This document shows, in pieces, positions 673 through 43,839 of a stretch of DNA of 64,000 nucleotides. How positions within the stretch are numbered: the stretch's first letter is position 1; every line of letters starts with the position of its first letter. Made by a program: the position numbers and the translations under genes. The stretch is from NCBI GenBank assembly GCA_964627035.1, contig CAZVKN010000002.1:11206-75205 (forward strand), written 5' to 3'. The notes beneath the pieces were generated by a model that did not search any database, was not told where the DNA came from, and worked only from the letters and a program-made list of their open reading frames with translations. The stretch is from an uncultured bacterium (GTDB lineage Bacteria > Electryoneota > AABM5-125-24 > Hatepunaeales > Hatepunaeaceae).

Positions 673-680
673 GGGAGTAA

Positions 681-2707: not shown

Positions 2708-2762
2708 GTTTTACTCACGCAAAGGCGCAAAGACGCAAAGCTTTTCTTTTTGTCTTTGTGCC

Positions 2763-6925: not shown

Positions 6926-6928
6926 TGA

Positions 6929-7013
6929 ATCCCGCTGTCAGCCCGCCGTGGCTGACAGCATAACTTAAGTAACAATAACAAGTTGGCTGTCAGGTGCGGC
7001 GACCTGACAGCGG
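6929..7013. repeat. Double-hairpin repeat element, copy 1 (CCGCTGTCAGCCCGCCGTGGCTGACAGC ... GCTGTCAGGTGCGGCGACCTGACAGCGG)
   Basis: Near-identical copies at 38752-38835 and 45988-46070. Each has two perfect palindromic stems. Confidence 0.85.
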
Positions 7014-7080
7014 ATAATTCGCATATAGCACGCAACCTTAAATGAATGTAGAATAACGGTACTGCGGAGAAAGTATTAAA

Positions 7081-7749
7081 ATGAAATCGGGAAAATCTAA
7101 GCCAAACGGTATCCTGAGAAACCTTAACCGCAACCTGGTAACAGGTGCACTTGCGGTGGGTCCGATTGCCATCACCATCTTCCTCCTTTGGAAGGGGTTT
7201 ATAATGCTGGACGGCATCCTTGCCACTGGAATTAATTTCATGATCCGGGATATACTCGGCATTGAAATTTTTGGTGGCAAGACTATTCCCGGTCTCGGAT
7301 TTGTCGCTCTGCTGATTATTCTTCTCGTGACCGGATACTCGGCACGAAACATGTTCGGACGGTGGATGCTGATCAGGACACGACGTTTCATCAGCCAGAT
7401 TCCACTCGTCAATCGCATCTACAAGGCTATTGAGCAGATCAGTCAAGCAATATTTTCAGGACAGCGTGAAGTATTCAAAAAAGCTGTCATCATAGAATAT
7501 CCTCGCAAAGGCGTTTACGCCATCGCAATCATGACAGCGGATACAAGCGGTATAATTCAGGATGTGCTGCCCGAAGATTCAATCAGTGTGTTTGTCCCTA
7601 CAACTCCTAATCCTACATCGGGCTTCCTGCTGTTTGTTCCTAAACGAGAGATCATTGAACTCGACATTTCAGTCGAAGATGCGTTAAAGCTGATTATTTC
7701 CGGCGGCACGGTACATGCCCGTGAAAAACTTCCTCAGAAGCAGTCGTGA
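7081..7749 (+). CDS. DUF502-family membrane protein
   Basis: N-terminal TM pair and a conserved C-terminal domain, in the usual DUF502 layout. Confidence 0.6.
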   Translation: MKSGKSKPNGILRNLNRNLVTGALAVGPIAITIFLLWKGFIMLDGILATGINFMIRDILGIEIFGGKTIPGLGFVALLIILLVTGYSARNMFGRWMLIRTRRFISQIPLVNRIYKAIEQISQAIFSGQREVFKKAVIIEYPRKGVYAIAIMTADTSGIIQDVLPEDSISVFVPTTPNPTSGFLLFVPKREIIELDISVEDALKLIISGGTVHAREKLPQKQS

Positions 7750-15556: not shown

Positions 15557-15940
15557 TCAGATCAGCTTCGCCACCAGTTCCAGCAGCTCATTCTGGTCAA
15601 TAGGCTTGGCGAGGTAGCCGTCGGGAGGCGGGACCTGCTTGCGGGATGATATGAATGTTTTAAAATCCGCTGAAACACCGGTGATGATCACCACCGGGAT
15701 AGACTTCAAGTCCTCATCCTCGCGAACTGTGCGATAGAATTTGACACCGGACATCTCCGGCATCGTGATATCAAGTGTAATAAGATCAGGCTTGGTTTCA
15801 CGCACTTTAACCAGCCCCTCGTCACCGTTCTCGGCGATAATCGTGTTGTAACCGTTGTCTTCCAATAAACTCGAAAAATAGGTCTGGGTATCCGGCTCGT
15901 CGTCAATTATTAATATGGTTTGCTTTTCAGCCATTTGCAA
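15557..15940 (-). CDS. Single-domain response regulator (CheY-like receiver)
   Basis: LIIDDEPD, phospho-acceptor LDITMPEMSG, IITG, and K in LAKP. The C-terminal PPPDGYLAKP motif is shared with the receiver fused to the HdrD-like protein. Confidence 0.85.
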   Translation of the reverse strand: MQMAEKQTILIIDDEPDTQTYFSSLLEDNGYNTIIAENGDEGLVKVRETKPDLITLDITMPEMSGVKFYRTVREDEDLKSIPVVIITGVSADFKTFISSRKQVPPPDGYLAKPIDQNELLELVAKLI

Positions 15941-16070: not shown

Positions 16071-17351
16071 CTACTTTATCAGAATGCCCTTGATCACATC
16101 CGTCTTACTACCCGAATTCAGCCGTATGATGTACATACCGGAGTTCAGCGCGCGAGTGTCCAGCCTGATGCTGTGACTCCCCGCAGACATCCGCCCACCA
16201 GTAGCTTCCATCACCAAGCTGCCGTTGATGTCGAACAGTGACAGATTGACATCGCTTGCACGATCCAGCCTGAATGAAACGGTTGACATCGGATTGAATG
16301 GATTCGGGTAGAGCGACACAATGCCAAATTCGGATGGAGTATTGTCATCCTCAGCCACATTGAGCAGATCCCTCATTCTGACCTGTACATCCAACTCCAT
16401 CTCACCGTTGAATGTGAACTCCGCCGCTTCAACAGCTTGATAACCGTCAGCAGTTACCGTTAACATGAACTGTTCATGTGGAAAACGGTATAGCTCAAAC
16501 ATACCGTCTTCGTCTGAGACGACTTCGATATTGGCGTCAACTACGGTTATTGTTGCGTTCTCAATCGGAGCATTGGTGTCGTCGTCCACCACCTGACCGT
16601 AAACGCTGCCGCCGTATCCGGCGAGATCTGCGAGGACATCCTCAAGAAACTCTGCACGGTCAAAGTCATGCTCGTTGTTCAACCCAAGGAAACAGATGCT
16701 CTGACTATACGCTCTGTATGCTCCTCCACCGTCGAAGAATACGCTGCGGACATAGTCTTCATTGCAGACGAAAACCGGATGTGATCCATCAAGTCCGCGG
16801 ATTCTGTCCGGCACGCCTCCGACCATCGCCATGTCCTCGTTTGTGTAGTATCCAAAGGCGCGTTCACCCAATTGACCCTCCTCATCGGCGTCAACACGGG
16901 TGATTTCGTTGTCTTCACCTACTTCTACAAATTCGATGTTGAAATAGTCGAACAAATCTGTTTCATGGTGTTGACCGCACCAGTCGTTGCCCTCGATGTA
17001 CAGACCGCGGTTCAATTCAACAAATTCAATTAAGGTCTCTTGGCTCTCCCGGTCAATCTGACCGGCTTCTATTCCGCCACCTCAATCGGGGCAGGAGAAA
17101 CCAAGCAGCACCATGATGACATCGTATTGACTCAAGTCGTCCGGGAGCGCTTCGTCGTGATCGTACTCGATCTCAAGTTGATCGAGCGTCTGCATCACGG
17201 CTGAAGACGAATTCAGCCTTTCTCCCAGGACAGGATCGTCAATCGGTAGTGGGTTATCGTTCACCCAAACGAACAGATCATAAGCGGATACACTCCCTGC
17301 CATGAGCAGAACGCAGAGCAGCAATCCCAAAATATATCCTGTTTTTTTCAT
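16071..17351 (-). CDS. T9SS C-terminal-domain secreted protein (carboxypeptidase-regulatory-like middle) interrupted by one in-frame TGA (17082-17084). Possible Sec/recoding site or a pseudogene.
   Basis: Track ORFs 17082..17351 (signal peptide MKKTGYILGLLLCVLLMAGSVSA) and 16071..17015 (TTG start, no signal peptide, Por_Secre_tail C-terminus) share one frame and are separated only by TGA. Read-through gives ...GFSCPD-U-GGGIEAGQIDRE... Confidence 0.5.
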
Positions 17352-17366: not shown

Positions 17367-18821
17367 TTAATTGGAAACAGCCATCGTTTGGACATGTTTC
17401 CTTGGAATTCTCACAATAAATCGTGTACCTTTATCTACCTCTGACTCAAGATCTATTGAACCCTTATGAGCCTTTGCAATCTTGTGTGCAATAAACAGTC
17501 CCAAACCTGTACCTTCAGTACCTTTCGACGAAAAGAACAGGCTGAATGCCTTCTCCCGTGTTTCCTGTTCCATTCCGATGCCGTCATCCTGAACCTCAAA
17601 CCGGACATGATCCACTTCACCGACTGCCCTTAACACCACCCGATGAGCCTCCTGTTTGTTGTCAATCCGGCAGGCGTCAAGCGAATTCTCCATCAGATTC
17701 ACTAACAGCGAGCGGATCGCTTTGTCGTCAGCTTCAAACTCACCAATATCCATGTTGATCTCTTTTGTAAGCTCAACTCCAAGTTCATCAGCTTTGTCTT
17801 TCGTTAATGTATATACATCGTTGGCGATGCTGTCACCTGACAGCAGCTCCCAATCCGGTTCTCGGTCTTTGGCATAGTAGAGAATATCGAGCACCATGCT
17901 GCGGACGCGGGTCACGTTGCGTAAGACAATCTCCCACCCCTGCTCGACACGGGCAGGATTATTCTTTTTCAGACCGTTATTGACGAGATAGATACCACCA
18001 TCCAATCCGTTGAGGATGCCCTTGATTCCGTGTGAGATAGTGCTTATCAACAGACCGATAGACGTTAACTGATCCTGCAATTCGCGAATCTGTGTGATGT
18101 CGGTGCTGATCTCAATGACCTGTTCAATCTCACCCTCAGCATTGCGCAACGGAGATGTGTAAACCAGCACATTCATCATCTTGCCATCAATTGAGGAGAC
18201 TACCTCTTCGTGGACATGCATCTCTCCATCCTGAAAAGTCTGACGAACGATGCATGGAACACATTCCTCTGTGCGATGTTTGTATGCCTCATAACATTTA
18301 GCACCATAGTTTGGTCCAAATGCTTCACGGTGGAGCCGATTGGCGTGGACGATCCGCATATCACGATCCTGAATCGAAATAAAACAAGGAACCTCCTCAA
18401 ATAATAGCCGGTATTTCTCCTGACTCTCTTTGTTCTGCTTCTGGAGCTGTTTTATCTCAGTGATGTCGGTTGACATCTCCATGACCGCCGTAATCTCACC
18501 GGCTTTATTGTAAATCGGAGTGGTGTAAACAATGACTGACACTTCACTGCCGTCAAGACAACGGACATGCTCTTCGCTTGAATGCCGTTGACCGTCCCTG
18601 AAAGTCCTCTCTACCGGACAGACTTCACACTTTTCAGGACGATTCTTGTACACCTGATAGCAGTATCGCCCCTCATAAGATCCGAAATCCTCAACAAACC
18701 ACTTGTTTGCACTGATAACTTTCAGGTTGCGATCCTGCACGGTCAAGTAGCAAGGCATTGACTCGAAATATTGTTGGTACGGCAGTTCCATGTCAGTCTC
18801 CCAAAAAGACGATAGGAGCAT
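17367..18821 (-). CDS. Sensor histidine kinase with two duplicated Cys-rich PAS-like domains, HisKA and HATPase_c
   Basis: Two repeats with C-x10-C-x2-C (CYQVYKNRPEKCEVCP; CYEAYKHRTEECVPC). H-box ISTISHGIKGIL. G-boxes GTGLGL. Confidence 0.85.
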   Translation of the reverse strand: MLLSSFWETDMELPYQQYFESMPCYLTVQDRNLKVISANKWFVEDFGSYEGRYCYQVYKNRPEKCEVCPVERTFRDGQRHSSEEHVRCLDGSEVSVIVYTTPIYNKAGEITAVMEMSTDITEIKQLQKQNKESQEKYRLLFEEVPCFISIQDRDMRIVHANRLHREAFGPNYGAKCYEAYKHRTEECVPCIVRQTFQDGEMHVHEEVVSSIDGKMMNVLVYTSPLRNAEGEIEQVIEISTDITQIRELQDQLTSIGLLISTISHGIKGILNGLDGGIYLVNNGLKKNNPARVEQGWEIVLRNVTRVRSMVLDILYYAKDREPDWELLSGDSIANDVYTLTKDKADELGVELTKEINMDIGEFEADDKAIRSLLVNLMENSLDACRIDNKQEAHRVVLRAVGEVDHVRFEVQDDGIGMEQETREKAFSLFFSSKGTEGTGLGLFIAHKIAKAHKGSIDLESEVDKGTRFIVRIPRKHVQTMAVSN

Positions 18822-18845: not shown

Positions 18846-20594
18846 TTATGCCAACTCGAGAATTTTCCGAGCGTTGAGCAGCAGAGTATCTTCATTGACA
18901 GGTTTGTTCAGATATCCCTCCGGTGGTGGTATGGATGTGCGATCATAGATCAATTTACGCAATTCGGGTCTGCCTGTTATGATACAGATTTTGATACTTT
19001 CAGTCTCAGGATTCTTCTTTAACGCTTCATAAACCTTCGTCCCGTCCGTTCCGGGCATTGACAGGTCAAGCGTGATCATATCAGGTATTTCCTTTGACGC
19101 TATTTCAATTGCTGAATCACCGTCCGCTGCTTCAAGCACCGTAGCACCGTTGTCTTCCATTACTGCGGTGAAGAAGGTGCGGATGTCCGGTTCGTCATCA
19201 ACAACCAATATTCTGAATCCGGCGAGTGCTTCTGCAACTGCCTCTTCTTTAATTTCCGGAACGGCAACAACAACCGGTTTCTCAGGAATGACAATTGCAT
19301 TTGCAACCAGATTGACCAATTGAGTAACTTCCATGCCCAGCTCGTAATGTTTTATGCAGTCTGCTAAACCATCCACGCAGTTGTGACATGATGTCACGAC
19401 AATTTCAGCACCTGTCGCCTTCAACTGGTCAGCTTTGACCTTTGCCGATTTCAGACGACGCGGCGTATATTCCGACATTGACATCGCACCACCGCCACCT
19501 GTGCAGCAGTAGTTCTCCGCTCGATTCGGGTACATCTCTGTGAAGTTCTCACAGACAAGGTTTAGTAGTTCACGAGGCTCTTCAAACAAGCCGCAGCTTC
19601 GTGCGTTGTTGCATGAATCGTGAAAGGTGACCGGAATTTTGTTCTTAGATTTATCAACTTTAATCCTGCCTTCTTTAATGTAACGGAGCATCGTATCTAC
19701 GGAACTTTCCATTACAAAATTCACATCAACCTGACCCCAGTTCTGTCCTTCGCAGCGTGTCGAACGGTAACCGTGACCACACTCGGAGATGACCAGCGTC
19801 TTACCTTTCAACTCTTCAACCTTGTCATACAGCCTCTTCGCAACCGCACCACCGAGGTCGTCATCACCGGAGAACAGCCCGAAGTTGGTCATGTCCCAGC
19901 CCTCACTCGGCATCGTCCAGTTCTCGCCTGCAATATGGAAAATCTTTGCTGCATCTGCAATTGTGCGAGGGTCATATTTTGCCTCGCGGGGATTGATTGA
20001 ATATACTATGTCGGCGTTCATCTTATCAATAGGTATTACCGCAGTCTTATCCTCCAAATCCTCCTGCAGCTCTTCGGACATCCAATCAAGTGTATCAAGA
20101 TAATCCTCTTTTAACACACCCATCTGATTGCCGATCTCCCATTGATCCTTACTCACAACCGCCACACCCTCCGGCATGACTCCAACAGACACCAAAAGTC
20201 CGCGAGTCATCCGGTTGTAAGTTGCAAAGTCAACACCCATCGGGCAGTTGATTGAGCAACGTCGGCAGTTGGTGCACTTACCGAAAACCGTATCTTTAAT
20301 TTCTTCAAGTTCTTCATCGGTATAGACACTCTTTGCTTTGACCCACCATGGGATCACCTGCCCGGTCCAGTCGTGATGGCGCTTGAACAGCTTCCGCAGA
20401 ATGTCTCCTTTATATGCCGGGGCGTATGTCGGATCCCCCGGATTTGCCTGAACGTAATGACAAGACTCGGTACACATCCCACAGTGAACACAAGCCAGCA
20501 ATGAACCTGCAATCTGGCGGTTCAGCTTTTTACTCATCCGTTCCAGTACTTTCTCAGCTTTATATGATCTGGCTTTAGCCATTGTTGTCTCCAT
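18846..20594 (-). CDS. HdrD/DsrK/GlpC-like Fe-S oxidoreductase (2x[4Fe-4S] plus 2 CCG domains) fused to a C-terminal response-regulator receiver domain
   Basis: CVHCGMCTESCHY and CTNCRRCSINCPMG ferredoxin motifs. CCG motifs CGHGYRSTRCEG, CCTGGGGAMSM and TSCHNCVDGLADC. C-terminal REC: ILVVDDEPD, ITLDLSMPGTDG, IITG, NKP. Confidence 0.8.
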   Translation of the reverse strand: METTMAKARSYKAEKVLERMSKKLNRQIAGSLLACVHCGMCTESCHYVQANPGDPTYAPAYKGDILRKLFKRHHDWTGQVIPWWVKAKSVYTDEELEEIKDTVFGKCTNCRRCSINCPMGVDFATYNRMTRGLLVSVGVMPEGVAVVSKDQWEIGNQMGVLKEDYLDTLDWMSEELQEDLEDKTAVIPIDKMNADIVYSINPREAKYDPRTIADAAKIFHIAGENWTMPSEGWDMTNFGLFSGDDDLGGAVAKRLYDKVEELKGKTLVISECGHGYRSTRCEGQNWGQVDVNFVMESSVDTMLRYIKEGRIKVDKSKNKIPVTFHDSCNNARSCGLFEEPRELLNLVCENFTEMYPNRAENYCCTGGGGAMSMSEYTPRRLKSAKVKADQLKATGAEIVVTSCHNCVDGLADCIKHYELGMEVTQLVNLVANAIVIPEKPVVVAVPEIKEEAVAEALAGFRILVVDDEPDIRTFFTAVMEDNGATVLEAADGDSAIEIASKEIPDMITLDLSMPGTDGTKVYEALKKNPETESIKICIITGRPELRKLIYDRTSIPPPEGYLNKPVNEDTLLLNARKILELA

Positions 20595-20698: not shown

Positions 20699-21370
20699 TT
20701 ATCCGCGTACAATAGGAAATACACCTCGATGTCCCATGCTCTTCCCGAAGTAGTAACGGGTAAAGGGATAATATAGATAGTGCGATATTTTGCTGAACGG
20801 GACGTAAACCAGGAAGAATGCGGTCAGCATGAAATATACCATCAACACAGCTTCACCTGCAGCGAGGTTGTTCGGTGTCGCCCAAAAAGCGAACCAGAAC
20901 CAAACTGTCAACAGCAGCAGCGAGAAATAATCATCCGGAGTGCTAATCGCTCTCATGTAAACATCAATAGCACGCCTTATTATTCGATACACACCGACAA
21001 TGAAAGCCGCACCTATAATTATCTGGAAAATCAGACTCAGAAGAGCAGGTAATGGATTCTCTCCATAACCGTACGGTATAACGAATGACAGAAGAATTGC
21101 AGCAGTCACCCCGAGATGAAACAGGACGAATTGAAAATAGATAAAGAAATGCTTGCGGGTGCTCTCCATTGCCCACGGCATCCCGACATTGCCCCAACTA
21201 TACAGTATCCCTTTTCGTGGGGTCGTGTTGCTAAGACCTGTTTTCGCTTGTCGCTCCTTACCGGCTTTGAATCTGGTAAACCAGTAGATTCTAAATATGT
21301 AAACACACGCCATGAAGACCAAAGCAGACTCTTGTAGTATGTGCTCTGAAAATTTCAGAAGGTCACTCAT
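20699..21370 (-). CDS. NarI/HdrE/DsrM-like membrane cytochrome b, probable quinol-interacting partner of the HdrD-like protein
   Basis: About 5 TM helices with conserved His (FVLFHLG, SKISHYLYYPFTRYYF resembling the NarI-family C-terminal PF..H motif). Immediately upstream of the CCG protein. Confidence 0.55.
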   Translation of the reverse strand: MSDLLKFSEHILQESALVFMACVYIFRIYWFTRFKAGKERQAKTGLSNTTPRKGILYSWGNVGMPWAMESTRKHFFIYFQFVLFHLGVTAAILLSFVIPYGYGENPLPALLSLIFQIIIGAAFIVGVYRIIRRAIDVYMRAISTPDDYFSLLLLTVWFWFAFWATPNNLAAGEAVLMVYFMLTAFFLVYVPFSKISHYLYYPFTRYYFGKSMGHRGVFPIVRG

Positions 21371-21400: not shown

Positions 21401-21928
21401 CTAAGATTGAAGTTCGGCTTCAAACGGCTTGTACTCCCGGTTGTCCATAGTAGCAATGATAACCTCCTCCAAACCGCTGCCGTTGGTAAGATGTGAGCGA
21501 AACTCTTCGATCATTATTTTTGCACAGGTCGGGAGTGGAATCCCGTAAAATCCGGTACCCATCGGCGGGAAAGCAACTCTTTTAATCCCTTTCTCGTCTG
21601 CTCGTTTCAGGCTGCTTTTGATGGTGCTGTGTAGTTTTAATTCACTGTCCTGTTCCTGAAATTTAGGACCGTTTGCGTGGATGATATAGTCAGCTTTCAA
21701 TTCTCCGGCGGAAGAGACCACCGTTTCTGTGACATTAATCGGATCGAAGGTTGCAAGTTCCTTTTTAATTGAAGGACCTCCCCGCATTGAGATGGCATTT
21801 CCAAATCCACTGCCAAGTTCAAGATTGGATTGAGCATAAAAAACAATTGCCTCGACGTTTAGATTGGTTAAATCTCCCATGATCAGACGGACCGTGCTGT
21901 TTTTTATTTTGATAGATTTTTCCGGCAT
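21401..21928 (-). CDS. Macro-domain protein (ADP-ribose / O-acetyl-ADP-ribose processing)
   Basis: LIMGDLTNLNVEAIVFYAQSNLELGSGFGNAISMRGG matches the macro-domain N-terminal signature. Confidence 0.7.
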   Translation of the reverse strand: MPEKSIKIKNSTVRLIMGDLTNLNVEAIVFYAQSNLELGSGFGNAISMRGGPSIKKELATFDPINVTETVVSSAGELKADYIIHANGPKFQEQDSELKLHSTIKSSLKRADEKGIKRVAFPPMGTGFYGIPLPTCAKIMIEEFRSHLTNGSGLEEVIIATMDNREYKPFEAELQS

Positions 21929-21947: not shown

Positions 21948-22163
21948 TTAATTTTTTTCATCGTCCCAAATACCGTTTTTTTGATGCTGACGCTTCTCAC
22001 GCTCTGCCATTGAGCGGAGTTTGTAAGCGGCGTCTCGCAGCGTGCCGTAGAGGATACCGCAGCTTTTATCCTGACGAGCGGCATCTCCGGCATCAGCCAA
22101 AACCATCATCTCGCGGGACACCTGCAAGACCTTGGTGATATTTTTGTTATATGGTTTTGACAT
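21948..22163 (-). CDS. Small hypothetical protein (71 aa), first gene after the sigma54 promoter
   Basis: ATG start. No recognisable domain. Confidence 0.4.
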   Translation of the reverse strand: MSKPYNKNITKVLQVSREMMVLADAGDAARQDKSCGILYGTLRDAAYKLRSMAEREKRQHQKNGIWDDEKN

Positions 22164-22186: not shown

Positions 22187-22217
22187 TGTTTGAGCAATTA
22201 TGCACAAACCGTGCCAA
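22187..22217 (-). promoter_or_regulatory. Candidate sigma54 (-24/-12) promoter: TGGCAC-GGTTT-GTGCA on the minus strand
   Basis: Plus-strand GCACAAACCGTGCCA at 22202-22216 is the reverse complement of TGGCACGGTTTGTGC. It lies about 25-55 nt upstream of the 71-aa ORF start and downstream of the sigma54 activator gene. Confidence 0.5.
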
Positions 22218-22460: not shown

Positions 22461-24191
22461 TTAACGGTTTCCGAGATAACGGTACAGTGTTGTTCTGCTG
22501 ACACCGAGCAGTTTTGCAGCTTTAGCTTTATTGCCACCTGTACGCCGTAATGCGGAAGAGACATCGTCATCTGTAAGTAGCTGTGGACGACCCGGTCTGA
22601 CTTGGGCAGTAGTCAGGGATTCGCACAATTCCGGTGGAAGGTGCTTGATGTCAATGATATTTCCGTGACACTTTATCAAGGCAAACTGAACGGCATTGCT
22701 CAGCTCACGGATGTTGCCGTGCCAGTCGTAACTGATCAGTTGTGAGGTCGCTTCAGGAGTTATCTCAGGAACTATATTCCCACTGTTGGCTGTGTACTTC
22801 TGCAGGAAATGATCAATGAGAAGCGGTATGTCGCTTCGTCTTTCTCGTAGCGGGGGTAGGTTAATAGGAATGACGGCAAGACGGTAGTATAGATCCTCTC
22901 TGAACAGGTTCTGCTGTGTCAACTGCCGCAGGTCACGGTTGGCGGCACAGATAACCCGTACGTCAACCTTTTTGGTTTGCTCACCCCCGACAGGTTCAAA
23001 CGTCTTTTCCTGCAGTACGCGCAGCAGCTTGACTTGCATTGCCGGAGATATTTCTCCAATCTCATCAAGGAAGATAGTACCCTTGTCAGCAAGCTCAAAC
23101 CGACCTTTTTTATCACGGATTGCACCGGTGAAGGCTCCGCGCACATGACCAAACAGCTCACTCTCGAGTGTGCCCTCCGGCAGCGCACCACAGTTGACGG
23201 GGACAAAAGGCTTATTCCTTCTTGCGCTCGATTTGTGCAGGGCGTTTGCCACCATCTCTTTGCCTGTTCCGCTCTCACCCTGAATCAATATCGGCACATT
23301 GACATCCGACAGTTCGCGAATTGCATCGAAAACTTTCCGTATGGAGATGTGACGACCGACGATCCCGTGGGTGTCACGACTCATCTCGAGTTGCCTTCGC
23401 AATCGAGAAACTTCAGTTACATCACGAAACACTACCAATGCGCCCATTACAATGTCATGTGAGTCGTTAATAGTAATCACCGACATCTCCAGCTCACACT
23501 CCTGTCCGTTCCTCTTTGTAAACGTCTGTGGGTAGCGGAGTCTGCTGTGCATCTGTATGTTGTCTATACAAAATGAGCAGTCACCCCCGCAAAACCGACC
23601 AGGAAACACCTCATGGCAGTCGCGCCCAATGACGTCAGATTCACTGAATCCGGTGATTGCCTGAGCAGCCTGATTAAAAAAATATATCTTTCGGTCAAGA
23701 CCGTGAGCCATCACTCCGTCAGTGAGGTTGTTGATCAGAGATTCCAGTGTGATTCGCGTTTGGCGGATAGCATCGAGAAAACCGTGCTCAAACATACTGC
23801 CGACTCTCGACTGTATATCATCACGGATAGCGCAGAACATTGCTTTTATCTGCTCAGGTGGCACGTTCTGTTGTTTACCGGGATCAATCAGTGACCAGTG
23901 AATTCGGGGAGGCGAACCGGGGAATGTGGGACAGATCTCTTTTGCATGGTCGCACAGAGTTATCACAATGTCAAAAGGTACAGACTCAAGCTCCGGTATC
24001 GAGTAATCCACATGTGAGGCGACATCCAGCCCCAGATCGTTCATCACATCATGAACAATCGGATCAAGCTCCTGCTGTTTGTCACCTGCGCAAAACATCT
24101 GCATATCCGGCTTACAAAACTGCCCTGCAAAAGCAGCAGCCATCTGACTCCGACCCGAGTTACCGGTACATGCAAACAGGATTCTGAACAT
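22461..24191 (-). CDS. Sigma54-dependent transcriptional activator with an N-terminal ArsC/LMW-PTP-like domain and a Cys-rich PAS domain
   Basis: N-terminus ILFACTGNSGRSQMA (CX5R P-loop as in Trx-coupled ArsC/LMW-PTP) with LCDHAKEICP. PAS carries CHEVFPGRFCGGDCSFC. AAA+ GESGTGKE, ELFGH and GAFTGA motifs. C-terminal HTH LLGVSRTTLYRYL. Confidence 0.85.
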   Translation of the reverse strand: MFRILFACTGNSGRSQMAAAFAGQFCKPDMQMFCAGDKQQELDPIVHDVMNDLGLDVASHVDYSIPELESVPFDIVITLCDHAKEICPTFPGSPPRIHWSLIDPGKQQNVPPEQIKAMFCAIRDDIQSRVGSMFEHGFLDAIRQTRITLESLINNLTDGVMAHGLDRKIYFFNQAAQAITGFSESDVIGRDCHEVFPGRFCGGDCSFCIDNIQMHSRLRYPQTFTKRNGQECELEMSVITINDSHDIVMGALVVFRDVTEVSRLRRQLEMSRDTHGIVGRHISIRKVFDAIRELSDVNVPILIQGESGTGKEMVANALHKSSARRNKPFVPVNCGALPEGTLESELFGHVRGAFTGAIRDKKGRFELADKGTIFLDEIGEISPAMQVKLLRVLQEKTFEPVGGEQTKKVDVRVICAANRDLRQLTQQNLFREDLYYRLAVIPINLPPLRERRSDIPLLIDHFLQKYTANSGNIVPEITPEATSQLISYDWHGNIRELSNAVQFALIKCHGNIIDIKHLPPELCESLTTAQVRPGRPQLLTDDDVSSALRRTGGNKAKAAKLLGVSRTTLYRYLGNR

Positions 24192-24324: not shown

Positions 24325-24423
24325 AGGTTCAATCACACTGGAATGCCCATGCTCCCCAGCAACTAAAGAGAAGCCCTACAATCGTTGCAGGGCTCCTCAT
24401 TAAATAGAAATCAATTCGTCACA

Positions 24424-26617: not shown

Positions 26618-28813
26618 TTAACGATCTTTCAGCGAAACGGTAAACAGGGAGCCATTACCGACTTCACTGGACACTCTTAACCGATACCCTAAAGCATGAC
26701 ACAACGCTTTAGCGGTTGTCAAGCCTAATCCTGCACCATCCGAATTTGCAGATTGTCCGCTGCCTCGATAGAACGGTGAGAATATTGACAACATCTCATC
26801 AGAGCTTATACCACACCCGTTGTCCTGTACTTCTACTCTGATCGGTGTTGATCCCGAGCCTCCGGTGACCACCCGAACCGTGACAGATCCCTGATCTGTG
26901 TAGGACAGAGCATTATCAATTAGTGGCAGCAACAGTTGAAACAGCTTGTCTCTGTCAGTTTCAATTGAATCAATATCATCCGGCAGCTCGACGTTCAGTG
27001 ACACACCTTTGCTGTTTGCTGCCCCTTGAGAATAATCCACCGCTTCTCTGATTAGATCAGTGAGTTGAACAGGTTTGATGTCCAGTTCTATCTCTCCAGA
27101 CTCGATCTCAATGATCTCTGCAATTTCCTTCAAAATGCCAATCGCTCTGCGGTCATTGGCTGACAAACGATTGAGAGCTTGTATATCGTGTCTTGCCAGA
27201 CGAAACAGACAATGTTTCCATAGAATATCACTGTCCGTTACGCTCGATTTTAAGGATGATTGCAGGATAGAAATCAGATCAGTGACCATCTTGAGGTTTG
27301 ATCGGTTGCTGTTAATTGCCGTATCCTTTTCCTTGACCACGCTGTCCATATCCTGTTTTTGCTCAGTAACATCTTCGGAAACAGTTAGCAGGTAGTCAGG
27401 TCCGTCATCATCCTTGATTAATATCTTGCTTGTCTTAAAGATGCGAGAACCTTTGTGCGGAGTTTCGATGATTTCATCCTCAACTTCTACAAGTTCTCCG
27501 GAATTTATAGCTTGCCGGTCAGTGGCTACCGAACACTCTGCTTCCTCCTCGCGGAACAATTGATAATCATTTCTCCCGATGACATCATCACGTTTCAATC
27601 CGAGCAGCTCTTCGCCTCGCTTGTTCAATTGAATATATGACAGATCTTCCACGTCCTTGACGGTTATCAAATAGGGAAATTTATCAACAACTGATTTGAA
27701 GAATCGCTGCGCTTGTTCCTGTTCGGCTGACCTGTATCGTGTCTCGGATATGTCACGAGCCACTGCTATCCGGCTGACAAGCTTCTTGTTTTCAAACTCA
27801 GCAGATTCTTTGACCTCAATCCAGATTGTTTTCCCATCTTTCCCGCTTAATTCGACCTCATATTCGGTGAATTTCTTTCTTGGCTTGTTGAGAAAAATTC
27901 GGTTATCGGTTCGATCTGTCAGGCAATCTCTATAGCTCGCTTTCCATTCATCTATCGAATATCCGGTTATAGTTTCGACTGAAGGTGAGACAAACAACAC
28001 TTCACCGTTGTCATCTCGCTTCATGATCACATCGGTCACGCTGCTCAGAATCCCCTGATACTCATCAACCTTCTTCACCAGCCGTCTGTTTGAGTTATTG
28101 AGGGCTTCATCCATCAGACGCTGTTCGGTCATCTCGCGAGCCACACAGACGATTCTCTCGACCTCGCCTTCTTCGTTTTTAACGGTTGAAGTTGACATCG
28201 AGACGTATATCTTTTTCTGATCCTTGTTGATGAATGTTGTTTCAATTCCATCAAGAGAATTATGCTGAGCAATTCCTGCGACGCCAAAGGCTTCATTGGC
28301 ATCCTCATCAAGCAACACTTCCAGATTCAGTCCGGTCAGCTCACTCTCCTTGTAGCCTAATGCGGCGGTAACCACCTCATTGATCGCAAGGATGGTGCCA
28401 GACTCATTGCAGATGACAACCATGTCGGTCAACGATTTCAGCATATTGTCATTATACCGCATTGACTGAGCGGATGCGGACAGAACGTCCATCACTCCGT
28501 TCAGACCGAGAGCGATTGCATCGAAAATGTAGTCCTGACCCCGCACTTCAACACGCTTGGAGAAATCCATGCTTGACATTGCCATCACAACATCGAGCAG
28601 TTCGATCATGCTCTCCTCAATTCTGAAGCGGTCATTCTTTTGGAGTGACAGGTTTTCAGAGAGGTGGCTCAGCTTTCGCTTGATGCGGCTGAACTTGCTC
28701 TCGTCATCAATCAGATCGCTTCTGACTTTCAGGTTATCAGCGGTCAGGCTGTCAATCATCTGACAGATTTCGTCGAAGTTGCTGCCGGGTTGGGTCGTAT
28801 CAAACTCGTCCAT
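26618..28813 (-). CDS. Multi-PAS sensor histidine kinase
   Basis: Several PAS repeats, a HisKA-like region and a C-terminal HATPase_c (GAGLGL). Confidence 0.75.
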   Translation of the reverse strand: MDEFDTTQPGSNFDEICQMIDSLTADNLKVRSDLIDDESKFSRIKRKLSHLSENLSLQKNDRFRIEESMIELLDVVMAMSSMDFSKRVEVRGQDYIFDAIALGLNGVMDVLSASAQSMRYNDNMLKSLTDMVVICNESGTILAINEVVTAALGYKESELTGLNLEVLLDEDANEAFGVAGIAQHNSLDGIETTFINKDQKKIYVSMSTSTVKNEEGEVERIVCVAREMTEQRLMDEALNNSNRRLVKKVDEYQGILSSVTDVIMKRDDNGEVLFVSPSVETITGYSIDEWKASYRDCLTDRTDNRIFLNKPRKKFTEYEVELSGKDGKTIWIEVKESAEFENKKLVSRIAVARDISETRYRSAEQEQAQRFFKSVVDKFPYLITVKDVEDLSYIQLNKRGEELLGLKRDDVIGRNDYQLFREEEAECSVATDRQAINSGELVEVEDEIIETPHKGSRIFKTSKILIKDDDGPDYLLTVSEDVTEQKQDMDSVVKEKDTAINSNRSNLKMVTDLISILQSSLKSSVTDSDILWKHCLFRLARHDIQALNRLSANDRRAIGILKEIAEIIEIESGEIELDIKPVQLTDLIREAVDYSQGAANSKGVSLNVELPDDIDSIETDRDKLFQLLLPLIDNALSYTDQGSVTVRVVTGGSGSTPIRVEVQDNGCGISSDEMLSIFSPFYRGSGQSANSDGAGLGLTTAKALCHALGYRLRVSSEVGNGSLFTVSLKDR

Positions 28814-28991: not shown

Positions 28992-31900
28992 TCAAATTTG
29001 TTTTCGATCCAATCCTCTTATTACGCTCCTTAACTTCCTTTTAAGGTCGTCATTAAAACAATCATCTTTTGAGAGAACAGCAGAAGTCTGTTCTTTCAGC
29101 CTCAGCATTTCGTCAGTTGTTAAATCTTTGGATGTGACCACCACGACGGGGATGTGCTGGAATTGCTTCTCGTCGTTTCGGATCGTTTTCAGAAAGCTCA
29201 TTCCGTCCATCACCGGCATCATCAGATCCAGAATTATTAAATCGGGAATCTGCTTATACATCGCATCCAGTGCGATCTTACCGTTCAGAGCGGTTGTGAT
29301 TTGCATCTTCTCATCTTCGAGACAAGAGATGATTATCTCCTGTGCATCCGGATCATCATCTATGATCAGCAGTTTATTACGATCACCAGTTAGATTCCGC
29401 CGAAGCACATTTAACAGCTCTTCACGCTGTATCGGTTTGTTCAGAAAATCCACCGCACCGAGAATCATACCACGTTTTTCGGTGGCTACGATACTGACAA
29501 CCACAATAGGTATATGCCGAAGTGTTGGATCAGCCTTTAGTGATTTCAAAGTTTCCCAGCCGCTCACTTCCGGCATTAATAGGTCGAGAGTAATCAGATC
29601 CGGCTTATGTTCTCTGGCGATCTTTAAGCCATGTTTGCCGGACTGCGCCGTTAACGCTTTGCATCCGAATTCTTCAACATAGTGCTTCAATAAGAATCTT
29701 GAATCCGGCTCGTCATCAATGATCAGAATCAAATGATCGGCAGATTGCATTTCACCTCCGACTACCTTTTCTGTGGATTCAAGTTTCAGGACGTGCTCTT
29801 CACCCTCATCCAACTCACTTATTTCGGCATCGTTCAAGTCAAGCACTATGGAAAATGTGGTGCCCTTATTGAATTCGCTGCTGACTTTCAGTCTGTATCC
29901 CATCAATTTGCACAAGGACTTTGATATCGCCAATCCTAAGCCGGTTCCGCCATACTTTCGCGATGTACTGGTGTCAGCCTGCTGAAACGGTGCAAAAATC
30001 GCTTCCATCCGATCCGGGGCGATACCGATACCTGTGTCGGATACCTCTATCCTCATTAATTGACCGTCTGTCGGATCAGTTATCAGTTTGACGGTTATGC
30101 CGCCTTCTTCCGTGAATTTGATTGCATTCCCGATCAGGTTTATCAGCACCTGTTTCAGTTTAGCTTCATCTGTCCCGACAGGCTGAATATTATCCGGCAT
30201 TTTTAGCTTCAGATAGATGTCTTTCGACCTCACCATCTGCTCAAATTGGGGGATGATTCCCTCAAACAATTGATCGGGCTCAATTGTTCCGATTTCCAGC
30301 TCCATCCTGCCGGCTTCAATCTTCGAGATGTCAAGCAGATCGTTGATCAGCTCAAGCAGATGCGTGCCGTTAACAGCTATTCGGTCAAGATAAGTTAAAT
30401 CTTGCTCTCGCAGGTTCTCCGCCTTGTTTTTGAGCAATATATTTGCAAATCCGATCACTGAATTGAGCGGCGTTCTAAGTTCATGACTCATTCGTGCCAG
30501 AAAGTCACTCTTGGCTCGGTTAGCTGCTTCAGCTTCTTCTTTTGCCAGTTCCAACAGATGTTCGGCAACCTTTCGTTCGGTGATGTCGCGCATGACTCCC
30601 TGTACACCGCACGGACGACCGTTCTCATCGAGAAGCATCTTTGCATTTAGTGACGCATCAACGACCGTGCCGTCCTTAAACTCCATAAGAAGCTCATAAT
30701 CTTTGACAACGTGATCCTTAAGCAGCTTGCGCATTAGAACATTTCGGTCGGCAGGGTTGTGATAGAAATCGGTCACCGGACACCCAAGCACCTCTTCCGG
30801 CTCATAGCCGCATACTCGCACCGAAGGGCTGATAATGGTCAGGTAACCTTTCAGATCTGTCTGGTAATAAAGATCCTGAAATGACTCGAAAATGGTTCTA
30901 TATCTCTCCTCATTTTCCTTCAGCGCTTTCTCGGTTCGGTTACGCGCTGTCATGTCTCTGAAAATACCACGCGTTGAAATCGGCTCACCATCTTCAAATC
31001 GGCAGTTAACGCTGCCCTCAACCTCAACAACTTGTCCATTCTTTGTCACAAATTTCGCTTCCAGACGCCTGGTAGCACCCCCGCTAAGGATTTCACCGAA
31101 CGCTTGTCGGCAATGTTCTAAACAAGATCCGTGCAAAATCGAGAATATGGAATTACCGATGACTTCGTTTTCTTCATATCCCAGTGTTTTTAACCAGGTA
31201 CTGTTCACATACTGAATCTCACCGTCGGCTGCAACCGCCTGGATCAAATCACTCGCATTGTCAAAAAAGTCCCTTAACATCTCCTCGCTGTCCCGCAGAG
31301 CGTCCTCAGTTGTTTTCTGTTGGGTGATGTCCCGAAAGACAATCACACTGCCGGTAAAATCGCCTTGTTGCATTGGTGTCACAGTACAGAAGATGCTTAT
31401 CGGTGTGCCGTCTTTGCGAATGAACAGGTCGTTTTTGCTGTAAGTAAATGATCCGGATGCTTTCTGTCCGGAATAAAACCACACGTTGTCATACAGCTCT
31501 TTTCCAATTAACTCATTTTTGTCATAGCCTAACAATTTTTCAGCAGTTGGGTTCATAAAAGTCACATATCCGTCATGATCCAATACACAGATTCCTTCGC
31601 CCATTGAATCGGTAATATTCTGCAGGTAGTTTCGCGTCCGTTCAATCTCTTCCTGGAAGCTTCTCATGTTCATCACCGAGTTCCAGTTCTTCAGCAATGA
31701 ATCTACGAGTGAATAAAACTCTTCCTCGTCCAGCGGTTTTTTAACGTAGTAAATATCCTGCTGAAGACTTTTGCGTATCTCGGTTGAGGCGACATCCTGA
31801 TAAGCCGTTACGATGATAATGATGACTTCCGGATCAATTTTGCGCAGTGCGGATGCAGTCTTTAATCCGTCCATGATCGGCATCCGAAGATCAAGGATGC

Positions 31901-32306
31901 AGAGAGGTACTTTGCTGCCGTTATCATAGAATTCGCAGAATTGCTCAAGCAGGTATTTGCCGTCATCAAAGGTATGGATTTCATAATCAAAAGGATCGGA
32001 AGCTTCAGCGGCGAAACCGAGATCGTCCTTACGCTCAAAGATTATCCGGTAATATTCGCGCAGGCTTTGATCGTCATCCGCTATGAAGATAGTTTTATTC
32101 AACCCATTCCTCAAGGTGTCGTAAAAGGAGCGTTTGCCACCTATTGACAGTTGAATCAATGTGTGGTGAAGCGGAAAGCTTAGATTTTTTAGAGATGCGC
32201 ATGTTGAAAGATAATAAAATATAGTATCATATTGCAAGATATAGTTCTGATTTAGTAATTTTGTGATTGGGTGATTGAGTTCCTTCTTCCTTTCCAAACT
32301 CGTCAA
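28992..32306 (-). CDS. Hybrid sensor histidine kinase (REC-PASx3-HisKA-HATPase-REC-REC)
   Basis: N-terminal REC. PAS repeats. H-box LARMSHELRTPLNSVIGF. GTGLGLAISK. Two C-terminal receivers (LILIIDDEPD; LLIIDDDPD). Confidence 0.85.
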   Translation of the reverse strand: MTSLERKKELNHPITKLLNQNYILQYDTIFYYLSTCASLKNLSFPLHHTLIQLSIGGKRSFYDTLRNGLNKTIFIADDDQSLREYYRIIFERKDDLGFAAEASDPFDYEIHTFDDGKYLLEQFCEFYDNGSKVPLCILDLRMPIMDGLKTASALRKIDPEVIIIIVTAYQDVASTEIRKSLQQDIYYVKKPLDEEEFYSLVDSLLKNWNSVMNMRSFQEEIERTRNYLQNITDSMGEGICVLDHDGYVTFMNPTAEKLLGYDKNELIGKELYDNVWFYSGQKASGSFTYSKNDLFIRKDGTPISIFCTVTPMQQGDFTGSVIVFRDITQQKTTEDALRDSEEMLRDFFDNASDLIQAVAADGEIQYVNSTWLKTLGYEENEVIGNSIFSILHGSCLEHCRQAFGEILSGGATRRLEAKFVTKNGQVVEVEGSVNCRFEDGEPISTRGIFRDMTARNRTEKALKENEERYRTIFESFQDLYYQTDLKGYLTIISPSVRVCGYEPEEVLGCPVTDFYHNPADRNVLMRKLLKDHVVKDYELLMEFKDGTVVDASLNAKMLLDENGRPCGVQGVMRDITERKVAEHLLELAKEEAEAANRAKSDFLARMSHELRTPLNSVIGFANILLKNKAENLREQDLTYLDRIAVNGTHLLELINDLLDISKIEAGRMELEIGTIEPDQLFEGIIPQFEQMVRSKDIYLKLKMPDNIQPVGTDEAKLKQVLINLIGNAIKFTEEGGITVKLITDPTDGQLMRIEVSDTGIGIAPDRMEAIFAPFQQADTSTSRKYGGTGLGLAISKSLCKLMGYRLKVSSEFNKGTTFSIVLDLNDAEISELDEGEEHVLKLESTEKVVGGEMQSADHLILIIDDEPDSRFLLKHYVEEFGCKALTAQSGKHGLKIAREHKPDLITLDLLMPEVSGWETLKSLKADPTLRHIPIVVVSIVATEKRGMILGAVDFLNKPIQREELLNVLRRNLTGDRNKLLIIDDDPDAQEIIISCLEDEKMQITTALNGKIALDAMYKQIPDLIILDLMMPVMDGMSFLKTIRNDEKQFQHIPVVVVTSKDLTTDEMLRLKEQTSAVLSKDDCFNDDLKRKLRSVIRGLDRKQI

Positions 32307-32420
32307 CTTGCAAACTTAAATCGTGCTTTGGCGTGTGACGCAGTTCATTTGGTAGTGATTTATCCAATAGTTAAATTATCAAGTTGGTTGTTGCGCACAC
32401 TCTATTCTAACGGGGCAGTC

Positions 32421-35400
32421 ATGAAAGCTATCGAAAAAGCAATATCATTCGTACCGATACCTCTTCTCAAATGGATCGAACAAGGCAAAGAGGAGATGCG
32501 ATTTGATTCTGTAGTTGCATTTGCCGACGTTTCCGGTTTTACCGCCATGTCGCAAACCCTCTCCGAAATCGGCAAAGAGGGTGCCGAAATCCTTACCACC
32601 ATCCTAAACAGCTACTTCAGCAGCATGATCGCCCGCATTGAGCAAGGTGGTGGGTTCGTCGGAAAGTTCGGCGGGGATGCTATCACAATTTTCTTCCCGA
32701 CTGATGACAAAAACAGGTCGAAAGTCACACGCACAGCAGTTCAAACTTGTTTGGATCTTCAGGCGATGATGCCGCAATTCAGAGACATCGAGACCAAAGC
32801 CGGTAAATTTAGTCTTAATATGAAGATCGGTATCGCAAACGGAAAAGTGCTGTTCCGAGTTGTCGGTGACGATGAAAACGGAAAGGAGTTTCTGCTGGCA
32901 GGCTTGCCGCTTGACCATGCCGCTGATGCGGAACATCTGGGAGAAGCAGGTGAAGTGATTTTATCAGGAGATGTTGTCAAGCTATGCGGGAAACCGAGTC
33001 AGATCGGCACTCAGCTTGAGGATGGCTTCATCCGACTGGAAAAGGATATCGAGAGTGGCTCGACAGATGCCAAGCCAAAAATCACAGCATCTCACCTACA
33101 AGATCTATCGGATGTTCAAGTCGAACGCTACATTGAACTCGCCAAACCGTTCATAGACCGTTCCATCTACCGTAGATTGTCACTCGGTCTCGATTCGGTC
33201 GGTGAGATTCGCCGCGTGTCGGTAATCTTCCTGTCATATACCGGACTCGACTACGACGGTGACAACGAAGCCGGTGAAAAACTCGACTATCTCTACCGAT
33301 GGGTCAACGAGGTTGCCCTCAGATACAACGGCAGCATAAACAAGGTTGACATGGGTGACAAAGGCTCAAAAATCATCATCACCTTTGGAGCACCGACGGC
33401 GCATGAGTTTGACGTGCAACATGCAGTTTATTGCGGGCTTGAACTGACGGCAAGCAACGCACAACTTATGGAATGGGGTGTAAAGAAGAAGATGGGCATC
33501 GCCACCGGAACAGTCTTCGCCGGTGAGGTCGGATCGGCAATCAGGCAGGAATACACGGTGATGGGTCCAACCGTTAACCTGTCCGCACGCATGATGGGGC
33601 ATTCGTCGCACGGTCAGCTTTTGGTTGATGACCCGACTCAGAAAATTTCGGAGTTATCTTTTCACTTCTCATATCCTTCCGAAGTACAGTTCAAAGGATT
33701 GAGCGAAAAAACAGCGGTTTATGAGACACTGGGAGTGCAGACAACCGATGACAGTACAGTACAAAGCGATGTCGAGCCTTTGATCGGTAGAGCAACTGAA
33801 CTGAAGCAGATTAAAAAGGCAATCGAGGATGTTAAGAAAGGGTCTCTACAAACTCTGTTGCTGCGGGGTGATGCGGGCATAGGTAAAAGTCGTCTTGCCG
33901 GTGAAATTGTCCGATTGTCACGGACTGAACAGTTTCAGATAGCAGCGGGTGAAGCGTTAAGTTTCGGCACATATACGCCTTACCTGCCGTGGATCTCGAT
34001 TCTGCGCCGATTGATGGATCTGCCCGCAGTCGGTGGTGGTCAGTCGGCACTGACGAAAATCAGAGAGATTCTGACAAGCATTAATCCTGACCTCGGATAC
34101 AGGCTGCCGATAATTGCTCATTTGCTGGGGATTAAATGCCCTGACAACAACATAACACGTCATTTTGACGGGCAGCTACGACAGGAGAATCTGTTTGACT
34201 TCTTGCTGATGTATCTTCAGCAACTGATGGAAGAACAACCGTTGATGCTGCTGTTTGAGGATTCACAGTGGATTGACCAAAGTTCTCTTGAACTGTTGGT
34301 TTATCTGAAGCGCAATCTGCGTGAAAGTCCATTGTTAATAGTTATGGCTCAACGTCCACAAACTGCTGAAGAGTCACCTCACTTCAATGTCATTACCGGA
34401 AAAGGGGCGGTAACAACTTTTGACCTAAAAGAGTTTACCAAGGATGAAACCGAGCAATTTCTGCTCCAAAAACTGGTGGCTGACTCTATTGACCCCAAAC
34501 TACTCGATTTTATGTTTGATTATGGTCACGGCAATCCATCCTTTACTACTGAGCTGATAAACACTTTGCAGGCTTCCAATCAATTGAAGCATATCCCGTC
34601 CAAGTCAGGATTGCAGGTGGTTGCTGATGAAGATCTCTCCGATATTGACATCCCTGATTCGCTCAACGGTATCATAATGAGTCAATTGGATCGTCTCGAT
34701 GCCCAGACAGGACTGACAGTGAAGCTGGCTGCCGTCATTGGACGTCAGTTTTCGCAGGAGATGGTAAACGAGTCATATCCGGTTGAAGCTGACAGCGGGA
34801 TGATCAATGCAGCACTGGATGATCTTAAGCAGCAAGAGCTTATCATGCCGGGGGATGAAGCGGATCTGTATGACTATATCTTCAAGAATCTTGTGACACG
34901 TGATGTTGCTTATGACAGCCTGCTGTTTGCTCACAGGCGGGAATACCATCGCCGGGTAGGTCTCTGTCTTGAAACACTTCACTTTTCAAACTTGCAGGAA
35001 TGGAGTGAAACTTTGGCGCACCACTTCTACCACTCTGAAGATAGCGACCGGGCAACTCAATATCTTGGATCGTCCGGTGACAAGTCTTTTTACATCTTCG
35101 CAAACGACAGTGCCGAAACATATTACACGCAGGCAATTGACAGGTGTCCAAAACGGAAAGATCCCGAACGGCGGTATGTGCTGTACTCAATGAGGGCAAA
35201 GGTTTTCGCAGTAACAGGAAAACTGGATCTTCAGAAGGATGACCTTGAGAAAGCTCTGAAGCTTGCTAAATCATGCAAAAACAGTGAATGGCAGATTGAT
35301 ACACTCGATGAGATGATCTTCCGCTACTCCCGCATCAATGATCTTGATCAGATGAAGAAAACCATTGACAGCGCGAGGCGGGTGCTGAAGAAAGTGAAAT

Positions 35401-43782: not shown

Positions 43783-43839
43783 GATTAAACCTTTACCTTC
43801 GTCACACTGCTGCAACATGGGTAGATGGACTGAAAATTT

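Follow-up and report, generated by a model that had tools for sequence, protein, structure and literature searches.

Redox-sensing activators of sigma54-dependent transcription are few, and each of those described (OrpR, NorR, AdhR, PexR and FisR) uses a single sensory principle. A list of such proteins from December 2025 comprises OrpR, AdhR, PexR, FisR and RtcR; in that account FisR senses reactive sulfur species (RSS) through cysteines, PexR responds to H2O2 through a GAF domain with Zn/Fe, AdhR has a GAF-PAS arrangement with Fe2+ and NorR a GAF domain with non-heme Fe (PMC12754779). OrpR (DVU2106) of Desulfovibrio vulgaris Hildenborough is a sigma54 activator of PAS-AAA+-helix-turn-helix (HTH) architecture, whose PAS domain binds a redox-labile [4Fe-4S]2+ cluster (PMC8359166). 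The cluster requires C52, C61 and C65, near which an Asp or Glu is conserved at position 54, and the protein, which is active when reduced, becomes constitutive after deletion of the PAS domain or after mutation of the three Cys to Ser (PMC8359166). Here we describe a sigma54 activator gene from an uncultured bacterium of the Electryoneota, found in a stretch of 64,000 nucleotides (the window; GCA_964627035.1, contig CAZVKN010000002.1, positions 11,206 to 75,205), whose product carries a domain related to arsenate reductase (ArsC) in front of a Cys-rich PAS domain. With a probability of roughly 0.6, we interpret this protein as a dual redox sensor, in which an Fe-S PAS domain and an ArsC-derived thiol switch control a DsrMK-type module.

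Domain architecture of the activator

The activator open reading frame (ORF) was confirmed at 22461..24191 on the minus strand and codes for 576 aa; its assignment as a sigma54 enhancer-binding protein gene draws on the ORF itself, Pfam, NCBIfam and the start-codon evidence given below. All Pfam hits lay above their gathering cut-offs, and the scan recovered the four-domain architecture (LMWPc, PAS, Sigma54_activat, HTH_8) that an earlier note on this DNA had proposed, together with the motifs ILFACTGNSGRSQMA and LCDHAKEICP that it had quoted from the translation. LMWPc was found at aa 4-130 (40.3 bits, gathering cut-off 23.2), the models PAS, PAS_9 and PAS_4 at aa 149-262, Sigma54_activat (PF00158) at aa 277-443 (233 bits), AAA_lid_14 at aa 449-528 (89 bits) and HTH_8 near the C-terminus (40.7 bits). 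The protein can be divided accordingly into an ArsC/LMWPc-like domain (aa 1-138; 23778..24191), a PAS domain (aa 139-268; 23388..23777), a sigma54-interaction AAA+ module with its lid (aa 277-528; 22608..23363) and a Fis-type HTH DNA-binding domain (aa 547-571; 22479..22553), all on the minus strand. The AAA+ module contains Walker A (GESGTGKE, 305-312), GAFTGA (352-357) and Walker B (DE, 376-377), all invariant in the family. The protein thus has what is expected of an enhancer-binding protein, namely an AAA+ module with Walker A, Walker B and GAFTGA, a Fis-type HTH at its C-terminus and, ahead of a plausible target, a sigma54 promoter with -24 GG and -12 GC. None of the full-length NCBIfam equivalogs reached its cut-off for the activator, the best being PrdR (360 bits, cut-off 795).

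The start of the gene deserves attention because both public gene calls of the closest relatives (P0001, 100% identical, and P0002, 86% identical) begin at M17. These starts remove the CX5R P-loop, which explains why LMWPc is absent from the precomputed Pfam lists of the two proteins. In the P0002 contig, the DNA 5' of M17 reads in frame stop-LNT-MFRILFACTGNAGRSQ-MAAAF (L070, 2953-3000); between its MFRILFACTGNAGRSQ region and that of the window there are three synonymous changes and, at a variable position, one S-to-A replacement. Furthermore, the more distant relatives (54-72% identity) all begin with the P-loop. The in-frame P-loop upstream of M17 and the P-loop starts of the distant relatives indicate that the long form is the true product, and that the public calls of the closest relatives start 16 codons too late, thereby hiding the P-loop from domain searches.

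The same architecture is common to the best 120 protein clusters, which carry only generic names, and 60 loci, all of them in metagenome-assembled genomes (MAGs), were obtained by scanning GTDB at one genome per species with an alignment of the sensory region. These loci come from Acidobacteriota, LCP-89, Calditrichota, Zixibacteria, Kapaibacteria, Tariuqbacter, Phycisphaerales, Desulfobacterales, Myxococcota and SAR324. Counted at the level of phyla, the family occurs in eight or more lineages of uncultured anaerobes. The arrangement, which the earlier note had not recognised as a known one, is therefore far from rare; it does lack a curated model, source names are generic, and no description of the combination of ArsC-like domain, Cys-containing PAS domain and sigma54 activator was found in the literature searched. 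The loci fall into a core clade, defined by activators at least 54% identical, and a second clade. In addition, one Vicinamibacterales MAG carries two activator copies on different contigs (L009 and L010); the L010 copy looks truncated, is followed by a divergent CCG protein (34% identity) and may be a paralogue or a pseudogene.

The cysteine cluster of the PAS domain

The PAS domain holds four cysteines with the spacing C192-x8-C201-x3-C205-x2-C208, accompanied by E194 (23568..23618, minus strand); the first interval had been given as C-x9-C in the earlier note, one residue too long. These cysteines are kept in 113-121 of the 121 family members, and all four are invariant in every full-length locus of both clades. 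The activator and OrpR have the same C-x8-C-x3-C spacing (C192/C201/C205 and C52/C61/C65, respectively), with an acidic residue at +2 (E194 and D/E54). This conservation and spacing make the cysteines putative [4Fe-4S] ligands, and by analogy with OrpR we infer that C192, C201 and C205, together with C208, may hold a redox-labile [4Fe-4S] cluster. In the AlphaFold2 model, which is cofactor-free, confidence within the PAS domain is lowest for the Cys loop (200-212).

NreB, an oxygen-sensor kinase, has a four-Cys PAS domain that binds an oxygen-labile [4Fe-4S] cluster through the spacing C-x2-C-x11-C-x2-C. It shares the four-Cys PAS domain with the activator and differs from it in Cys spacing and in its histidine kinase output. 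The earlier note had likened the Cys-rich PAS domain to that of NreB; the differing spacing rules it out as the best analogue, no NreB appeared among the PDB sequence matches, and it is the OrpR spacing that fits.

An exhaustive search of representatives with aa 1-270 as the query also found proteins that begin directly with the PAS domain and bear the signature CH[ED].F....FCG..C.F (PAS-first proteins). A homology search from the most OrpR-like of them revealed a large family of ~445 aa in Desulfobacteraceae and Syntrophobacteraceae, all hits being deltaproteobacterial proteins with generic names. Residues 139-573 of the activator align with aa 6-438 of one PAS-first member at 50% identity with 2 gaps (E 1e-154); C192/C201/C205 fall on C59/C68/C72 and the first PAS Cys lies 160 residues before GAFTGA in both proteins, while the PAS domain taken separately is ~40% identical to that of PAS-first activators by a by-eye count on the alignment. 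The 50% identity of this region indicates that the present architecture arose from a pre-existing Cys-PAS activator by addition of the N-terminal 138-residue ArsC-like domain. In two of the four PAS-first loci the activator precedes operons with rubrerythrin, rubredoxin, ferritin, AhpC, desulfoferrodoxin and flavodoxin genes, headed by a homologue of the small hairpin protein described below, and in the other two the neighbours are unrelated. This oxidative-stress cargo argues for redox or oxidant sensing in the PAS lineage and, together with the OrpR-like motif, points to sensing through an Fe-S cluster. Orthology of the PAS-first relatives to OrpR was considered and could not be demonstrated, their contexts being oxidative-stress or unrelated genes and their names generic.

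The ArsC-like domain

A PDB sequence search with the ArsC-like domain returned Bacillus subtilis ArsC (1JL3) first (E 5.6e-19, aa 4-136 aligned with 6-137), followed by the ArsC proteins of Staphylococcus aureus pI258, Synechocystis and Corynebacterium, and the top 15 matches were arsenate reductases or one LMWP-family protein. The catalytic residues are in register, as C10, C82, C89 and D105 of 1JL3 stand opposite C8, C80, C87 and D103 of the activator, and C10...R16-S17 opposite the P-loop C8-TGNSG-R14-S15. Together with the Pfam LMWPc match, this bears out the earlier note's view of the N-terminal region as ArsC/LMWPc-like with a resolving Cys pair. Among the 121 family members, which share 54-86% overall identity and ~66% mean column identity, C8 and R14 are each conserved in 91 of 92, C80 in 119 of 120 and C87 in all 121, and D103 is present in 108, with N in its place in 13. 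No more than 17 of the 135 positions of the domain are at least 98% conserved, among them C8, G13, R14, C80 and C87. That catalytic residues belong to this group of 17, across several phyla and at ~55-60% overall identity, is hard to explain without selection on chemistry. Furthermore, the AlphaFold2 (AF2) model of the domain has a predicted local confidence (pLDDT) of ~90, and the catalytic set is intact in 33 of 36 core-clade loci. The domain is thus a structurally intact relative of thioredoxin-type ArsC with its chemistry under selection. It has the CX5R(S/T) P-loop with a Cys nucleophile, the resolving Cys pair and the Asp general acid of an ArsC, and no ars operon context was seen in the annotated neighbourhoods; its score with the NCBIfam model TIGR02691 (arsC_pI258_fam; aa 4-131) is 88.2 bits, below the cut-off of 174.3.

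These residues raise the question of whether the activator is a sensor of arsenate or another oxyanion, as the earlier note had entertained, in which the domain would reduce arsenate, the resulting C80-C87 disulfide would activate the AAA+ module and the operon would serve an arsenic response. Conservation of every residue of thioredoxin-coupled reduction (P-loop Cys and Arg, C80, C87 and D103) speaks for this idea. However, no ArsB/Acr3, ArsR, ArsA/D or ArsM gene was seen among the annotated genes of the window, whose smaller ORFs were not all scanned, or of five related loci (L001-L005), the regulon that is conserved consists of a TmcBC/DsrMK-like module and two-component proteins, a regulon of the same kind is kept by loci whose ArsC-like domain is degenerate, and the TIGR02691 score is half its cut-off. 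We therefore regard an arsenate signal as very improbable.

The fold is shared with low molecular weight protein tyrosine phosphatases (LMW-PTP), and the domain could act on a phosphoprotein, either one that partners the kinase and receiver proteins of the cassette or one phosphorylated on Tyr or Arg, and so couple phosphorylation state to transcription. LMW-PTP catalysis, too, relies on a CX5R(S) loop and a DP-type Asp, Pfam assigns the domain to LMWPc, and the adjacent operon is rich in kinase and receiver proteins. However, the best matches are arsenate reductases, the arginine phosphatase YwlE was matched in the same PDB search with E 0.004 only, and no Tyr kinase was seen nearby. In addition, the C80/C87 pair is a feature of ArsC, where a pair of the C82/C89 type shuttles the disulfide outward to thioredoxin with large local unfolding, and it has no role in LMW-PTP catalysis. 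We consider a phosphatase input very improbable as well.

A sigma54 promoter and a conserved cassette next to the activator

The 297-nt gap 3' of the activator gene contains a sigma54 -24/-12 promoter, TGGCACGGTTTGTGC (22202..22216, minus strand), 38 nt before a small ORF. An equivalent element was present in all six loci examined first; the background rate is 0.065 per kb. A strict-score match lies 31-44 nt (60-86 nt in a few cases) ahead of the small ORF in 27 of 39 related loci, and recognisable promoter variants, for instance with a TTGT -12 element, occur in most of the other 12. The palindrome GTAAC-N-GTTAC was considered as the binding site of the activator, having been seen by eye in a few loci, and was discarded as it did not generalise.

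The promoter precedes a cassette read from the minus strand. Its first gene encodes a 71-aa protein with Cys35 (21948..22163), predicted to form a two-helix hairpin, and the second a Macro-domain protein (21401..21928), presumably an ADP-ribose binding protein or hydrolase, identified by Pfam Macro (87 bits), NCBIfam and core-clade conservation. A 223-aa polytopic membrane protein follows (20699..21370), which we regard as a TmcC/HmcE-like anchor from hydropathy and from NCBIfam scores that both lie below their cut-offs (TmcC 47 and HmcE 35 bits). Next comes a Fer4 and CCG protein similar to HmcF, TmcB and DsrK, fused to a receiver (REC) domain that matches the DVU0259 family (18846..20594; Pfam and NCBIfam), and then a PAS-PAS histidine kinase with Cys-rich PAS domains (17367..18821; Pfam, Cys positions and cassette conservation). 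A stand-alone receiver (15557..15940; Pfam Response_reg) closes the cassette and has the same position in L001-L004. Between kinase and receiver lies a protein with a type IX secretion system (T9SS) tail (16071..17015), an apparent insertion that is found likewise in L001.

Among the non-redundant core-clade loci with at least 4 kb of downstream sequence, 26 of 29 keep the genes for the small, Macro, TmcC-like and TmcB-like proteins with order and strand unchanged. The second clade keeps the small protein, a NarI/DsrM-like membrane protein, the Fer4/CCG protein and kinase/receiver genes. The Macro gene, fixed in the core-clade cassette between small protein and anchor, is missing from the version of the second clade. 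On the basis of the conserved promoter and synteny, the adjacent operon is probably the direct target of the activator.

The cysteines of the CCG protein comprise a Fer4 dicluster (C35/38/41/45 and C107/110/113/117), C272 within SECGH, CC363-364 and C403xxC406. A study of DsrMKJOP assigned a single CCG together with an ECGH signature to the thiol/disulfide-reducing subunits DsrK, TmcB and HmcF (PMC10861901). The protein at 18846-20594 carries this combination, with the Fer4 dicluster, a single CCG and a Cys in T/G/S-ECGH; its NCBIfam scores all lie below the cut-offs (HmcF 342 against 750, TmcB 314 against 735 and DsrK 245 against 400 bits). The CCG protein is 76-90% identical across phyla, compared with 54-72% for the activator, and its REC domain is a separate gene in L002 and L005. 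This higher conservation suggests that constraint is very strong or that the cassette has recently spread by horizontal transfer.

Since DsrK-type enzymes reduce protein trisulfide (PMC10861901), the activator might instead sense reactive sulfur species in the manner of FisR, its Cys triad becoming persulfidated or cross-linked by polysulfide or sulfane sulfur and the induced enzyme being a DsrK-like trisulfide or persulfide reductase. FisR is itself a sigma54 activator, with three cysteines serving to sense RSS (PMC12754779), and the small single-Cys protein of the operon could carry sulfur. However, the annotated neighbourhoods of L001-L005 showed neither sulfur-oxidation genes nor dsrAB/dsrC, lineages with a degenerate ArsC-like domain count against this idea as they do against the dual redox sensor, and in silico it makes the same predictions as a plain disulfide switch. 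We consider specific sulfur sensing quite unlikely.

The small protein belongs to a family of 66-75 aa that accompanies Cys-PAS sigma54 activators of all three architectures; homologues lie next to the activators of either clade and in two of four PAS-first loci (L066 7107-7307 and L067 7299-7502). The family shares the motif AD.GD..R.D..CG..YG.LRD.AYK.R.LAE with one near-invariant Cys, and E56 and H60 are invariant; the two-helix hairpin is predicted by AF2 with a pLDDT of 92. The protein had no match in Pfam or NCBIfam, no PDB sequence match, no significant Foldseek match and no name in any source. A resemblance to encapsulated-ferritin-like hairpins was followed up and rejected as not significant.

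Several further observations concern the cassette and its surroundings. Both PAS domains of the kinase at 17367-18821 contain C-x10-C-x2-C (C54/C65/C68 and C176/C187/C190), which may be a distinct metal or Fe-S site. Genes for heme biosynthesis and cytochrome c maturation flank the cassette in L002 (15425-16687), L003 (15348-17671) and L004 (2553-3695); they comprise GlutR (hemA), Aminotran_3 (hemL-like) with ALAD (hemB), and Cytochrom_C_asm, and would fit a heme-b-containing membrane anchor. In L003, an Acidobacteria MAG, a second cluster (322-7472) lies divergent from the activator and resembles a DsrMKJOP-like complex with its own two-component set: Fer4/CCG, a 246-aa protein without assignment, Fer4_11, an NrfD-multiheme cytochrome c fusion, PAS, a PAS histidine kinase and two REC proteins.

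A proposed model of a dual redox sensor

These data suggest a model in which the Fe-S PAS domain would be the core sensor, gating the AAA+ ATPase by analogy with OrpR. The N-terminal domain would derive from a thioredoxin-coupled arsenate reductase and act as a thiol/disulfide or thiol/sulfane-sulfur switch through a C8-C80-C87 relay, and a large conformational change like the one that this relay drives in ArsC could convey a second, cytoplasmic thiol-redox signal to the activator. The activator would then turn on the operon immediately downstream, that is, the small Cys hairpin, Macro, TmcC-like, CCG-receiver, kinase and receiver proteins. With C80 and C87 strictly retained, no ars genes seen in the annotated neighbourhoods and a thiol-reducing DsrK-type enzyme in the regulon, the most economical mechanism is a thiol/disulfide or sulfane-sulfur switch, and we infer that thiol-switch chemistry takes place at the ArsC-like cysteines.

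Several points weigh against this model. First, of 27 second-clade loci a single one retains the complete catalytic set; the others have G/S, L, G and R in these places and keep the fold, and three further loci (L030, L041 and L061) combine a degenerate ArsC-like domain with a full cassette. These losses imply that thiol chemistry is dispensable for the basic function of the family, and that the ArsC chemistry is an accessory input rather than the core sensor. Second, no thioredoxin gene was seen near the activator. Third, the link with OrpR comes from motif spacing, architecture and context and not from alignment, and orp genes are not adjacent to the PAS-first relatives examined (4 loci); the four PAS cysteines may alternatively bind Zn. 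In addition, half-site palindromes, counted over 30 intergenic regions of the core clade as candidate binding sites for the activator, gave no better result than in shuffled sequence. Lastly, the AF2 model of the full-length activator has a pTM of 0.42, so that its interdomain geometry is unreliable, and it was left out of any consideration of interdomain contacts.

The degenerate loci could also be read to mean that the ArsC-like domain is an inert scaffold, a pseudoenzyme that serves dimerisation or packing of the PAS and AAA+ domains while the PAS cluster does all the sensing. This agrees with 26 of 27 second-clade loci and three full-cassette loci that retain the fold without C8, R14, C80 and C87, and with PAS-first relatives that work without the domain. 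However, in the clade of the window the catalytic residues belong to the 17 positions, out of 135, that are conserved most strongly over several phyla, and we find a purely structural role unlikely there. We conclude that the PAS Cys cluster is the invariant sensor of the family and the ArsC-like domain an accessory input, chemically competent only in the clade of the window.

It is also conceivable, if rather unlikely, that the ArsC-like domain, instead of sensing by itself, is the receiving end of a dedicated thiol relay, with a C80-C87 disulfide or persulfide written or erased by the CCG enzyme or the small Cys protein that the activator induces. If this were true, the redox state of the menaquinone pool or of cytoplasmic thiols would be reported straight to sigma54 transcription, and the cassette, including the receiver-fused DsrK-like subunit, the Cys-rich PAS kinase and the Macro protein, would be an unrecognised signal-transducing version of a DsrMK-type respiratory module.

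Overall, we rate the family as a probable Fe-S PAS type of sigma54 activator with an added enzyme-derived thiol module. If the dual redox sensor model is correct, this would be the first case of a complete arsenate-reductase-type Cys relay recruited as a regulatory domain and stacked on an Fe-S PAS sensor. Natural controls are available in the clades with an intact, a degenerate or no ArsC-like domain. Additionally, the activator provides a regulatory handle on an orphan DsrMK/TmcBC-type module and ties the conserved small Cys protein to a class of activators.

Neighbouring genes

Upstream of the activator gene, a terminator-like hairpin with a 14-bp stem and a T-rich tail (24368..24398, minus strand), recognised in the sequence 3' of oligopeptide ABC ATPase genes, sets these genes apart from the activator gene. 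Further along, the plus strand encodes a 1416-aa protein (32271-36521) with two adenylate/guanylate cyclase domains, AAA_16 and TPR repeats, which adjoins large hybrid PAS histidine kinases (26618-28813 and 28992-32306), making the region unusually dense in signalling genes. T9SS sorting domains (Por_Secre_tail) end the proteins at 16071-17015, 40096-43818 and 49296-51428, which include a C25 gingipain-like peptidase, and suggest that the organism belongs to the FCB group.

Comparison with known systems

The closest enzymes to the N-terminal domain are the thioredoxin-coupled arsenate reductases of S. aureus pI258 and B. subtilis (PDB 1JL3 and 1LJL), with which it shares the full-length LMWP fold, the CX5R(S) loop, the Cys nucleophile, the resolving pair and the Asp acid. 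In contrast to these free enzymes, the version in the activator is a domain of a transcription factor; it stays below the TIGR02691 cut-off (88 against 174 bits), has no ars context and has a Gly in place of the second P-loop Cys (C15 in ArsC).

The cassette, for its part, shares with the DsrMK, TmcBC and HmcEF modules a membrane anchor and a cytoplasmic single-CCG Fer4 protein with the ECGH Cys. It differs from them in having neither a cytochrome c subunit nor nearby dsrAB/dsrC, and in that the catalytic subunit is fused to a receiver and placed in a signalling cassette.

As regulators, FisR, PexR, AdhR and NorR resemble the activator in that an N-terminal redox module releases the ATPase, and none of them pairs two such modules as described; nor does any of these four, or of OrpR and RtcR, contain an ArsC/LMWP module according to their description (PMC12754779). 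The uncharacterised PAS-first activators (for example L066 and L067) share the PAS-AAA+-HTH part with aligned cysteines, and a homologue of the small hairpin protein lies downstream in two of four loci. However, they are without the ArsC-like domain, and their cargo is oxidative-stress defence and not a TmcBC-like module. OrpR likewise has its PAS domain directly N-terminal to the sigma54 AAA+ module and HTH, where it is a negative gate on the ATPase, and both proteins come from anaerobes. The activator differs from OrpR by an additional ArsC-like domain of 138 aa and by a further invariant Cys, C208; the operon next to it is a TmcBC-like cassette, whereas OrpR regulates the divergent orp operons. 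As to polarity, OrpR is active when reduced, whereas the PAS-first relatives appear to drive oxidative-stress genes.

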